From the IMG/VR virus record IMGVR_UViG_2690316099_000013: a DNA stretch of 9,385 nucleotides; one strand, 5' to 3'. This stretch comes from a virus. Taxonomy: Duplodnaviria; Heunggongvirae; Uroviricota; Caudoviricetes. Below the pieces are notes generated by a model, which was given only the letters and a program-made list of their open reading frames with translations, did not search any database and was not told where the DNA came from. The number at the start of each line of letters is the position of its first letter. Position 1 is the first letter of the stretch. The translations under genes and the position numbers were made by a program. Shown here piece by piece: positions 3,237-9,385 of this stretch.

Positions 3237-3374
3237 CCGGGTATCAGTTAGCGGGAGAAATTTTTAAATACTTCACAATTCAGGCGGTTGACTGTTGNNN
3301 NNNNNNNNGTGTGACTTTCTCTGTGGGCTGGTCACCCCCGGGCGCAGGCTCACCCACTAAAAGGAAAAGTCACG

Positions 3375-4695: not shown

Positions 4696-5031
4696 ATGCC
4701 GGGTAAATTCAGATTCAGCCGTCGCAGTGAAAAAAATCTGGAGGGTGTCAAACCACAGCTGGTTGCTGTAGTTCGCCGTGCGCTGGAGCTGACGGAGGTT
4801 GATTTCGGTATTACGGAAGGCCTGCGCAGTAAGTATCGCCAGAAACAGCTGGTTGCGGAAGGGAAAAGCCAGACCATGAACAGCCGCCACCTGACCGGTG
4901 ATGCGGTGGATGTTGTGGCCTACATTGGCAGTCAGGTGTCATGGGAGTGGCCTCTGTACGAGAAAATCGCACAGGCATTTAAGCAGGCTGCCGCAGAGCT
5001 GGGGATCGCTATCGAATGGGGCGGGGACTGG
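4696..5031 (+). CDS. Endolysin, peptidase M15-like (VanY / L-alanyl-D-glutamate peptidase type), 3' end lost in the N-gap
   Basis: ATG 4696 preceded by GAGG at 4687-4690. The first 112 aa (MPGKFRFSRRSEKNLEGVKPQLVAVVRRALELTEVDFGITEGLRSKYRQKQLVAEGKSQTMNSRHLTGDAVDV...) resemble small phage M15-family endolysins from memory, and the gene sits directly after two holin-like genes. Truncated at 5032. Confidence 0.7.
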
Positions 5032-5482
5032 NNNNNNNNNNNNNNNNNNNNNNNNNNNNNNNNNNNNNNNNNNNNNNNNNNNNNNNNNNNNNNNNNNNNN
5101 NNNNNNNNNNNNNNNNNNNNNNNNNNNNNNNNNNNNNNNNNNNNNNNNNNNNNNNNNNNNNNNNNNNNNNNNNNNNNNNNNNNNNNNNNNNNNNNNNNNN
5201 NNNNNNNNNNNNNNNNNNNNNNNNNNNNNNNNNNNNNNNNNNNNNNNNNNNNNNNNNNNNNNNNNNNNNNNNNNNNNNNNNNNNNNNNNNNNNNNNNNNN
5301 NNNNNNNNNNNNNNNNNNNNNNNNNNNNNNNNNNNNNNNNNNNNNNNNNNNNNNNNNNNNNNNNNNNNNNNNNNNNNNNNNNNNNNNNNNNNNNNNNNNN
5401 NNNNNNNNNNNNNNNNNNNNNNNNNNNNNNNNNNNNNNNNNNNNNNNNNNNNNNNNNNNNNNNNNNNNNNNNNNNNNNNNNN

Positions 5483-5604
5483 GTAGCGATACTGGTGCCT
5501 TTTTTATTGGTGGGGTGCGTCAGCCTGGATAAGGCGCGCCAGCTTTTCGATACCGCGTCTCAGGTCTGTGAAATTGTCGACGGTGTTCGGCAGTGTCTGC
5601 AGAA
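5483..5604 (+). CDS. Fragment of a putative spanin or outer-membrane lipoprotein, both ends in N-gaps
   Basis: The frame-2 translation VAILVPFLLVGC|VSLDKARQLFDTASQVCEIVDGVRQCLQ shows a hydrophobic stretch ending in a lipobox-like LVGC, with no Asp at +2. Its position downstream of the endolysin is where Rz/Rz1-type spanins lie. Only 122 bp is available. Confidence 0.25.
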
Positions 5605-5872
5605 NNNNNNNNNNNNNNNNNNNNNNNNNNNNNNNNNNNNNNNNNNNNNNNNNNNNNNNNNNNNNNNNNNNNNNNNNNNNNNNNNNNNNNNNNNNNNNNN
5701 NNNNNNNNNNNNNNNNNNNNNNNNNNNTAAATTCTTTCTGTCGCCGCGAATACTCAAATGTTGATCAGTGCCCGGTGCGGCGACGGGCTTCGATATCAGG
5801 AGACGATGATGGAAAAAAACAGAAAACAAACCGATTGTAATTGGTGCTGATGCTGCTCCGTTTAAGTTTGAG

Positions 5873-6241: not shown

Positions 6242-6812
6242 AATGTGAGAAATAAAAAACCGGTCACAGGGAGCAGCTACACAGAAGCGGCCGGCGAAGA
6301 CCGCCAATACCACCCATGCATTGATGCAACATACTAATGACAATAGCCGCTATTGATGTAAATGCAATGTTATGCATCGACGAAAATAAAAAACCNNNNN
6401 NNNNNNNNNNNNNNNNNNNNNNNNNNNNNNNNNNNNNNNNNNNNNNNNNNNNNNNNNNNNNNNNNNNNNNNNNNNNNNNNNNNNNNNNNNNNNNNNNNNN
6501 NNNNNNNNNNNNNNNNNNNNNNNNNNNNNNNNNNNNNNNNNNNNNNNNNNNNNNNNNNNNNNNNNNNNNNNNNNNNNNNNNNNNNNNNNNNNNNNNNNNN
6601 NNNNNNNNNNNNNNNNNNNNNNNNNNNNNNNNNNNNNNNNNNNNNNNNNNNNNNNNNNNNNNNNNNNNNNNNNNNNNNNNNNNNNNNNNNNNNNNNNNNN
6701 NNNNNNNNNNNNNNNNNNNNNNNNNNNNNNNNNNNNNNNNNNNNNNNNNNNNNNNNNNNNNNNNNNNNNNNNNNNNNNNNNNNNNNNNNNNNNNNNNNNN
6801 NNNNNNNNNNNN

Positions 6813-7317: not shown

Positions 7318-7363
7318 TTGCCCTGTATTCAGTGTCGCTGATTTGTATTGTCTGAAGTTGTTT
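7318..7363. repeat. 46-bp exact direct repeat, copy 1, abutting the N-gap
   Basis: TTGCCCTGTATTCAGTGTCGCTGATTTGTATTGTCTGAAGTTGTTT is identical to 7469-7514 on the other side of the 105-nt gap. Confidence 0.9.
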
Positions 7364-7468
7364 NNNNNNNNNNNNNNNNNNNNNNNNNNNNNNNNNNNNN
7401 NNNNNNNNNNNNNNNNNNNNNNNNNNNNNNNNNNNNNNNNNNNNNNNNNNNNNNNNNNNNNNNNNNNN

Positions 7469-7514
7469 TTGCCCTGTATTCAGTGTCGCTGATTTGTATT
7501 GTCTGAAGTTGTTT
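7469..7514. repeat. 46-bp exact direct repeat, copy 2, abutting the N-gap
   Basis: Identical to 7318-7363. The sequence continues into lambda-like right-end DNA (TTACGTTAAGTTGATGCAGATC...). Confidence 0.9.
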
Positions 7515-7629: not shown

Positions 7630-7852
7630 TTGCGGGTCCTTTCCGGCGATCCGACAGGTTACGGGGCGGAAGGCGCGCGGGTTTTCGCTATTTATGAAAA
7701 TTTTCCGGTTTAAGGCGTTTCCGTTCTTCTTCTCCGTAACTTCATGTTTTTATTTAAAACACCCCCTGAAAAGAAAGGAAACGACAGGTGCTGAAAGCGA
7801 GCTTTTTGGCCTCTGTCGTTTCCTTTCTCTGTTTTTGTCCGTGGAATGAACA
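7630..7852 (+). other. cos: cos site (cosQ-cosN-cosB) of a lambda-type packaging module
   Basis: The sequence ...CCGACAGGTTACG | GGGCGGAAGGCG | CGCGGGTTTTCGCTATTTATGAAAATTTTCCGGTTTAAGGCGTTTCCGTTCTTC... aligns with the lambda right-end / left-end junction as I recall it. cosN cohesive-end positions are 7664-7675, and the cosB R-sites and IHF region extend to the Nu1 start. Confidence 0.85.
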
Positions 7853-8392
7853 ATGGAAGTCAACAAAAAGCAGCTGGCTGACATTTTCGGTGCGAGTATC
7901 CGTACCATTCAGAACTGGCAGGAACAGGGAATGCCCGTTCTGCGAGGCGGTGGCAAGGGTAATGAGGTGCTTTATGACTCTGCCGCCGTCATAAAATGGT
8001 ATGCCGAAAGGGATGCTGAAATTGAGAACGAAAAGCTGCGCCGGGAAGTTGAAGAACTGCGGCAGGCCAGCGAGACAGATCTCCAGCCAGGGACTATTGA
8101 GTACGAACGCCATCGACTTACGCGTGCGCAGGCCGACGCACAGGANAATGCCAGAGACTCCGCTGAAGTGGTGGAAACCGCATTCTGTACTTTCGTGCTG
8201 TCGCGGATCGCAGGTGAAATTGCCAGTATTCTCGACGGGATCCCCCTGTCGGTGCAGCGGCGTTTTCCGGAACTGGAAAACCGACATGTTGATTTCCTGA
8301 AACGGGATATCATCAAAGCCATGAACAAAGCAGCCGCGCTGGATGAACTGATACCGGGGTTGCTGAGTGAATATATCGAACAGTCAGGTTAA
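7853..8392 (+). CDS. nu1: Terminase small subunit gpNu1
   Basis: ATG 7853, TAA 8390-8392. The translation [74 protein letters not shown]...[14 protein letters not shown] matches lambda Nu1 almost residue for residue from memory. An N at 8146 coincides with an apparent in-frame loss of about 2 codons. Confidence 0.95.
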
Positions 8393-9385
8393 CAGGCTGC
8401 GGCATTTTGTCCGCGCCGGGCTTCGCTCACTGTTCAGGCCGGAGCCACAGACCGCCGTTGAATGGGCGGATGCTAATTACTATCTCCCGAAAGAATCCGC
8501 ATACCAGGAAGGGCGCTGGGAAACACTGCCCTTTCAGCGGGCCATCATGAATGCGATGGGCAGCGACTACATCCGTGAGGTGAATGTGGTGAAGTCTGCC
8601 CGTGTCGGTTATTCCAAAATGCTGCTGGGTGTTTATGCCTACTTTATAGAGCATAAGCAGCGCAACACNNNNNNNNNNNNNNNNNNNNNNNNNNNNNNNN
8701 NNNNNNNNNNNNNNNNNNNNNNNNNNNNNNNNNNNNNNNNNCCGTGGTATGGCAAAAAGCACCGGGATAACACGCTCACCATGAAGCGTTTCACTAATGG
8801 TCGTGGCTTCTGGTGCCTGGGCGGTAAAGCGGCAAAAAACTACCGTGAAAAGTCGGTGGATGTGGCGGGTTATGATGAACTTGCTGCTTTTGATGATGAT
8901 ATTGAACAGGAAGGCTCTCCGACGTTCCTGGGTGACAAGCGTATTGAAGGCTCGGTCTGGCCAAAGTCCATCCGTGGCTCCACGCCCAAAGTGAGAGGCA
9001 CCTGCCAGATTGAGCGTGCAGCCAGTGAATCCCCGCATTTTATGCGTTTTCATGTTGCCTGCCCGCACTGCGGGGAGGAGCAGTACCTTAAATTTGGCGA
9101 TAAAGAGACGCCGTTTGGCCTCAAATGGACGCCGGATGACCCCTCCAGCGTGTTTTATCTCTGCGAGCATAATGCCTGCGTCATCCGCCAGCAGGAGCTG
9201 GACTTTACTGATGCCCGTTATATCTGCGAAAAGACCGGGATCTGGACCCGTGATGGCATTCTCTGGTTTTCGTCATCCGGTGAAGAGATTGAGCCACCTG
9301 ACAGTGTGACCTTTCACATCTGGACAGCGTACAGCCCGTTCACCACCTGGGTGCAGATTGTCAAAGACTGGATGAAAACGAAAGG
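8367..9385 (+). CDS. A: Terminase large subunit gpA, 5' portion (continues beyond the window)
   Basis: GTG 8367 overlaps the Nu1 3' end in the +1 frame. The translation [100 protein letters not shown]... matches lambda gpA from memory. The frame stays open across the 8669-8741 gap to 9385. It is absent from the ORF track only because no stop lies within the window. Confidence 0.95.
   Translation, partial: MNISNSQVNRLRHFVRAGLRSLFRPEPQTAVEWADANYYLPKESAYQEGRWETLPFQRAIMNAMGSDYIREVNVVKSARVGYSKMLLGVYAYFIEHKQRNXXXXXXXXXXXXXXXXXXXXXXXXXPWYGKKHRDNTLTMKRFTNGRGFWCLGGKAAKNYREKSVDVAGYDELAAFDDDIEQEGSPTFLGDKRIEGSVWPKSIRGSTPKVRGTCQIERAASESPHFMRFHVACPHCGEEQYLKFGDKETPFGLKWTPDDPSSVFYLCEHNACVIRQQELDFTDARYICEKTGIWTRDGILWFSSSGEEIEPPDSVTFHIWTAYSPFTTWVQIVKDWMKTK

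Follow-up and report, generated by a model that had tools for sequence, protein, structure and literature searches.

The window considered here, that is, the whole stretch of DNA that was analysed (9,385 nucleotides; IMG/VR virus record IMGVR_UViG_2690316099_000013), is the late region of a chromosomal lambdoid prophage, with a Q-like gene, a methyltransferase gene, tRNA genes and lysis genes, and in this it differs from the phage-plasmids discussed below. The open reading frame for the 349-aa DNA methyltransferase lies at 1208-2257. Immediately 3' of it lie three tRNA genes, spanning 2307-2556 (CAT anticodon, Arg-TCG and Arg-TCT), the first of which is called Met by ARAGORN, while its equivalent in AST85 is a tRNA-Ile according to RefSeq. 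The layout of the late region matches that of the AST85 prophage inserted between potC and potB, and ETEC H10407 is among the other listed matches.

It is important to point out that the window is a gapped draft scaffold with eight N runs (2560-2632, 3298-3308, 5032-5482, 5605-5727, 6396-6812, 7364-7468, 8146 and 8669-8741), and that these runs do not preserve length: in gene A 97 bases are represented by 73 N, and in Nu1 7 bases are represented by one N. The 105-N gap at 7364-7468 is flanked on either side by the same 44-46 nt (7320-7363 and 7469-7512). Both copies map to a single place in E. coli 582, and they look like the unmerged ends of overlapping contigs.

The packaging module occupies the right-hand part of the window. 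The cosQ heptamer GGGTCCT (Table S1 of PMC9026076), the packaging-termination element, is found on the plus strand at 7634-7640, corresponding to cos bp -30 to -24. It is an exact lambda match and has the same spacing to cosN. The three R sites of cosB are likewise exact matches at the same offsets as in lambda, namely the TerS binding site R3, AAGGCGTTTCCGTTCT, on the plus strand at 7712-7727 (R3 is located at about bp 50-65; PMC9026076), R2, an inverted 16-mer CTGTCGTTTCCTTTCT, on the minus strand at 7772-7787, and R1, CTGTCGTTTCCTTTCT, on the plus strand at 7813-7828. They are followed on the plus strand by Nu1, the terminase small subunit (TerS), at 7853-8392, and by the 5' part of gene A, the terminase large subunit (TerL), which starts at 8367, runs past the window end at 9385 and contains the N run 8669-8741. 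Nu1 reads as 179 aa, which is an artefact of the single N at 8146 standing for 7 bases, so that it looks two codons short. This aside, two substitutions, A75T and L132I, distinguish it from lambda Nu1. Where gpA can be read (101/101 and 214/214 residues, 315 in total), it is 100% identical to lambda gpA. The first-pass annotation of this DNA had stated that the cosB sites, Nu1 and A match lambda, and the alignments bear this out, with cosQ, R3, R2 and R1 exact, two substitutions in Nu1 and none in 315 residues of gpA. The locus is thus organized as a lambda-like cos, with cosQ at the lambda spacing, R3, inverted R2 and R1 before terS, and lambda-type TerS and TerL genes adjoining.

The cosN site and its right half

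The nicking site cosN, with the sequence CG + GGGCGGAAGGCG + CG, is located on the plus strand at 7662-7677 and can be aligned column for column with lambda cosN, for which PV340536.1 (locus L003) was used as reference. The predicted 12-nt 5' cohesive end at 7664-7675 reads GGGCGGAAGGCG, whereas the same columns of PV340536.1 read GGGCGGCGACCT. The flanks, ...CCGACAGGTTACG and CGCGGGTTTTCGC..., are the same in the window and in the reference. The first-pass annotation had described a 6-nt substitution at 7670-7675. The difference is real, but it amounts to five of the six bases: the block reads AAGGCG instead of CGACCT, and the cosN differences are confined to 7670, 7671, 7672, 7673 and 7675, i.e. 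bp 7, 8, 9, 10 and 12 (AAGG-G against CGAC-T in lambda), while the C at 7674 (bp 11) is the lambda base. Seven of the 12 bases are the same, and bp 1-6 with the left half GGGCGG, the CG dinucleotides flanking the nicks, cosQ, R3/R2/R1 and all spacings are as in lambda. By placement from lambda (PMC9026076), we infer that the top strand would be nicked between 7663 and 7664 and the bottom strand between 7675 and 7676.

The clustering of the changes in bp 7-12 is non-random. Between 7469 and 7860 the window has 21 mismatches to lambda, 16 of which are outside cosN, giving a background of 4.2%. At this background, the probability of five or more changes in a 6-bp block is ~8e-7, or ~3e-4 when corrected for every position. 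The rotational symmetry of cosN is changed from five pairs in lambda to four in the variant, with (3,10) and (6,7) lost and (4,9) gained. The GC content of the overhang is 10/12 in both cases, and the predicted duplex energies of the matched overhangs are very similar, −18.6 kcal/mol for variant/variant compared to −19.0 kcal/mol for lambda/lambda. For the mixed lambda/variant duplex, pairing is predicted for bp 1-6 only, with an energy of −9.5 kcal/mol, to be compared with −15.3 kcal/mol for lambda/N15.

Two further features of the block can be mentioned. Together with the adjoining bases it creates GCGCGC, a BssHII-type site with two overlapping GCGC, spanning the position of the bottom-strand nick (7670-7679), where lambda has CCTCGCG. 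In addition, the hexamer at 7670-7675 is the same as the first six bases of R3 (7712-7717). We considered R3 as a local template for AAGGCG and discarded it, as a given hexamer is expected within ~250 bp on either strand ~12% of the time. The TerS contacts have been placed at bp 55-63, beyond the AAGGCG copy in R3, and the copy is probably a coincidence.

That the right half of cosN varies in nature and that this variation is tolerated by terminase is already known from the work of Feiss and colleagues (PMC4669245). Lambda-like phages often differ in bp 7-12; the positions concerned are bp 9 and 12 in N15 and phiD326 and bp 8, 9 and 11 in Gifsy-1. For many mutations in this half the phenotype is minimal, with little effect on cos cleavage, whereas the symmetric changes in the left half are severe (Feiss et al. 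2015, PMC4669245). Right-half variants are nicked efficiently by lambda TerL, and lambda with the cosN of N15 gives a normal burst. The asymmetry between the two halves has been ascribed to TerS anchoring TerL at cosB (PMC4669245). Other natural cosN alleles are those of N15 (GGGCGGCGTCCG), PICI-B/C (GGGCGGCAGACG) and PICI-G (GGGCGACGACCT), listed in Table S1 of Feiss 2022 (PMC9026076), and that of LLS/mEp213 (GGGCGGCGCGCT; PMC12315714).

The present site resembles those of N15, phiD326, Gifsy-1, PICI-B/C and LLS/mEp213 in that only bp 7-12 are changed, the left half and the nick-flanking CGs being kept, and it shares the G at bp 12 with N15 and PICI-B/C. It differs from the other right-half variants in having five changes instead of two to four. 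It also differs from N15 in its setting, since it adjoins a TerL and a cosB that are nearly identical to those of lambda, while N15 TerL is ~65% identical to the lambda protein (PMC4669245). AAGGCG is the most divergent cosN allele found here beside a lambda-identical terminase.

Occurrence and backgrounds of the allele

To count the variant in complete E. coli genomes, we used a 50-mer centred on it, chosen such that each of its 28-base seeds includes part of the changed block. It is present at 169 places in 158 of 5426 genomes, compared to 8412 places in 4486 genomes for the equivalent lambda 50-mer, and the variant accordingly makes up ~2% of the lambda-type cos sites. Sixteen of the 169 places are on records annotated as plasmids. 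The 12-mer is also present in 56 IMG/VR contigs, among the gathered loci in L001, L002 and L004-L008, and in the deposited genomes of two phages, PhiR46_1 and YDC107_1. Scans of IMG/VR with an N6 pattern and fixed flanks, from which the allele frequencies are rough only, gave at least 118 lambda, at least one CGACCG and at least one AAGGCG (with a GGTTACG flank) among the matches listed; with a relaxed flank, the number was 4 of 29 additional loci, again among the matches listed.

The 12-mer is found on ~40 distinct flank haplotypes, and in the IMG/VR contigs there is wide variation in the cosQ-cosN spacer, with unrelated genes upstream. Loci with the lambda allele match the flanks of the window as closely as the nearest variant locus does (0 differences in 76 bp on the left and 5 in 180 bp on the right), which makes the AAGGCG block a discrete allele, as opposed to one stage of a graded divergence. 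We conclude that AAGGCG is a minority polymorphism of cosN that is spread over many lambdoid backgrounds.

The allele is shared with the N15-like phage-plasmids (Ravinvirus) PhiR46_1, YDC107_1 (L004) and pAH01-1, which carry telL/telR or protelomerase, ParA/ParB and a large RepA-type primase. These differ from N15 in having lambda-type head, tail and terminase (Nu1/A) genes and a cosB with three R sites, compared to the single R site of N15.

A further group of loci, comprising L135 (~4770-5600), L174, L131 and L167 from IMG/VR and ~1000 E. coli genomes, has cosQ and the AAGGCG cosN followed by a different cosB, GGTGGTGGTTTTGTTGTT, which resembles R3 of N15, and an N15-like TerS of 170-180 aa. 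In the loci with this cosB there is no TerL gene after TerS, and a gene for an AlpA-type regulator is located immediately upstream. Such an arrangement suggests a satellite or PICI-like element that encodes a TerS of its own.

We have also looked for a donor outside E. coli by scanning one genome per species for TACGGGGCGGAAGGCGCGC, and the only match in a cos context was Escherichia sp. E1V33. The six other matches are in GC-rich genomes without cos context and were taken as chance, and the scan yielded no outside donor. The exact 12-mer and its complement were absent from phage papers in the literature searched, where only unrelated plant and Streptomyces papers matched; Vahanian et al. 2017 (Virology 509:140) may already list the allele.

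Interpretation of the variant

Taken together, the site is best described as a functional lambda-type cos in which the right half of cosN is represented by a natural allele, on an otherwise lambda-identical prophage packaging module, a reading to which we assign a probability of roughly 85%. We now turn to the alternatives.

The first of these is that the two alleles are cohesive-end compatibility classes held by selection and not by drift. Chromosomes with mixed ends would carry 5/12 mismatches and cyclize and ligate badly, new single-base variants would be eliminated, and AAGGCG would remain as a class of its own, partly isolated from the lambda-type phages. The energetics given above are in line with this, the mixed lambda/variant duplex being far weaker than the matched ones (−9.5 compared to about −19 kcal/mol) and also weaker than lambda/N15 (−15.3 kcal/mol), and a 2-bp end mismatch already cuts the viable yield about fourfold (PMC4669245). 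The pattern of variation points in the same direction. In 78 loci gathered via the Nu1 protein, and hence in a way that places no condition on cos, there is no variation at bp -3 to +5, 11 and 13-16, and the changes at bp 7, 8, 9, 10 and 12 are completely linked. Variants that differ from either allele by one base are rare, and apart from these each allele hardly varies, while there is polymorphism in the cosQ-cosN spacer, and both alleles occur on many flank backgrounds. Free drift at six sites without constraint would not be expected to link five changes completely and to leave so few single-step variants.

However, conservation in these 78 loci is just as high in the whole of cos downstream of cosN as in the two alleles, so that recent common ancestry of this very conserved region may be all that is needed to explain why each allele varies so little. 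Furthermore, related alleles exist, such as GGGCGTCAGGCG and GGGCGGCGACCG and the PICI allele GGGCGGCAGACG, so that the sequence space is not strictly two-state, and a new cosN mutation sits at both ends of its own concatemer, which means that selection would act only in mixed situations. Another possibility is that the 12-bp overhang moves as a unit via mismatched-end heteroduplexes, which Feiss et al. demonstrated. We consider selection for end compatibility an improbable, though not negligible, source of the linkage, and maintenance of the two alleles by such selection is in our view unlikely. It is similarly doubtful that the E. coli lambda-type phages form two end classes, CGACCT and AAGGCG, that share one terminase and whose ends are not productively joined across classes.

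The rare further cosN alleles found beside lambda-type Nu1 are GGGCGTCAGGCG, GGGCGACGACCT, GGGCGGTGACCT and GGGCGGCGACCG. The first of these (L256 and L280; cos bp 1 at 2812) has AGGCG at bp 8-12 as in the variant and a changed bp 6, and GGGCGGCGACCG is the lambda sequence with the variant's G at bp 12. The loci of the remaining rare-allele entries are L062/L250, L253/L276 and L282.

The second alternative, put forward in the first-pass annotation, is that the changed cosN cripples nicking and that the window represents a packaging-defective cryptic prophage. It is true that bp 12, which adjoins the bottom-strand nick, is changed, that two of the five rotationally symmetric pairs are lost, and that the nearest complete relatives of the window prophage, AST85 and APEC E14033, are both degraded. 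However, their decay is due to an integrase-bearing insertion in a head gene and not to cos: the portal gene of AST85 is truncated (L220, 29626-34600), and the major capsid gene of APEC E14033 is cut short likewise (L005, 15150-18050). In both cases the break leads directly to a tyrosine integrase, a small HTH regulator and a YlcI/YnfO-family gene, and the AST85 insertion additionally has BRO-N and Icd-like genes, which suggests a mobile element inserting into, or recombining with, prophage head genes.

The same cosN is, on the other hand, found in genomes with complete morphogenesis modules. In the stretch of E. coli 582 that was examined, the head genes and the first tail genes are intact downstream of the variant cos. 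The 46.9-kb N15-like phage-plasmid pAH01-1 has a complete lambda-like head and tail set together with the variant cos and plasmid genes for protelomerase, SopA/ParB and a RepA-type protein. PhiR46_1, also an N15-like phage-plasmid, has a complete lambda head and tail gene set and is deposited as a complete phage genome, the record of which annotates telL/telR and gives ECOR13 as laboratory host. According to PMC13190303, which cites Brenes and Laub 2025, PhiR46_1 belongs to a panel of lambda-related temperate phages used in plaque assays; its growth as a phage is taken from this citing paper and from the GenBank record with its host ECOR13. We also considered EcCICFT073, a PICI packaged by lambda, as a direct test of AAGGCG, but it carries the lambda allele instead.

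Moreover, right-half changes, including bp 12 of N15, leave the yield unaffected, and those in bp 7-12 have a minimal effect on cos cleavage (PMC4669245). Unlike a decaying site, the allele is unchanged on its ~40 flank haplotypes. A packaging defect is thus unsupported and very unlikely. The variation lies in the half of cosN where terminase is reported to tolerate changes, and the variant is therefore an ordinary allele with no sign of a broken prophage. We infer the function of the AAGGCG site itself from the genomes in which it is found and from experiments with alleles that diverge less from lambda (N15, with two changes).

A third scenario is that TerL has co-evolved with cosN, resulting in a new nicking specificity. 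In its favour, mutations in lambda cosN can reportedly be suppressed by changes in gpA, according to work of the Feiss laboratory. However, in an alignment of 58 full-length gpA sequences, seven of them from variant-cosN loci, no column separates the variant from the lambda-type loci, and co-evolution is therefore rejected as extremely improbable. The seven proteins are 98.9-99.8% identical to lambda gpA (one of them 99.84%), the enriched substitutions (positions 9, 21 and 466) are present in both allele groups, and residues 496-520 are identical. Also against it are the identity of the window gpA to lambda over its 315 readable residues and the occurrence of the allele with two types of Nu1 and with an N15-like TerS. 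AAGGCG is enriched with the Nu1 type of E. coli 582, yet it is also found with lambda-type Nu1, and the lambda allele is found with both; we do not claim any coupling between Nu1 and cosN, because the sample is biased by the query. The absence of gpA covariation is consistent with cleavage of AAGGCG by lambda TerL at normal efficiency. The variant cos specificity proposed at first pass is thus retained for the overhang, which differs and is predicted to pair poorly with lambda ends, but not for the terminase, which is that of lambda and has no co-varying residue.

Finally, an error of sequencing or assembly in a low-quality draft, also raised in the initial description and prompted here by the gapped scaffold, the N runs that lose length and the repeated 44-46 nt around the gap at 7364-7468, has a negligible probability and is rejected because the identical 12-mer recurs on many different flanks in finished genomes, phage records and IMG/VR contigs, and four complete E. 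coli chromosomes match the variant 50-mer at 100%.

Packaging at the variant site and its implications

On the reading of a functional cos with a natural cosN allele, packaging would proceed as follows. TerS (Nu1) bound to R3 of cosB would anchor TerL (gpA), as in lambda. TerL would then nick the bottom strand between bp 12 and 13, largely indifferent to the sequence of bp 7-12, and a second TerL would nick the top strand at the conserved left half (CG|GGGCGG). The packaged DNA would bear 12-nt 5' overhangs, GGGCGGAAGGCG and its complement; these virion ends are a prediction that the intact phage genomes carrying the allele back indirectly. After injection, a genome with variant ends would be expected to cyclize normally, because the GC content and the predicted stability of the overhang are like those of lambda. 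The only functional consequence to be expected, with the terminase unchanged, is that variant ends would pair poorly with lambda-type ends.

These results mean that AAGGCG at this position should not be taken to indicate that the prophage is dead, that the terminase has a new specificity or that the assembly is wrong. Predictors of termini and annotation pipelines that use the exact lambda 12-mer miss ~2% of the E. coli lambda-type cos sites. The allele also constitutes a natural reagent, in which a lambda-identical terminase and cosB are combined with an overhang differing at 5 of 12 bases, and which would allow tests of the mismatch tolerance of cyclization and of the sequence-independent nicking of the bottom strand. 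In cosmid work or in vitro packaging with such phages, the ends would not anneal to standard lambda arms.

If the less probable selective scenario were true, the linkage of the five changes and the scarcity of single-step variants would be the mark of selection for compatible ends in a phage community that recombines. The 12-bp overhang would then act as a mobile cassette that is exchanged by way of mismatched-end heteroduplexes, and at the same time it would partly block the formation of hybrids.
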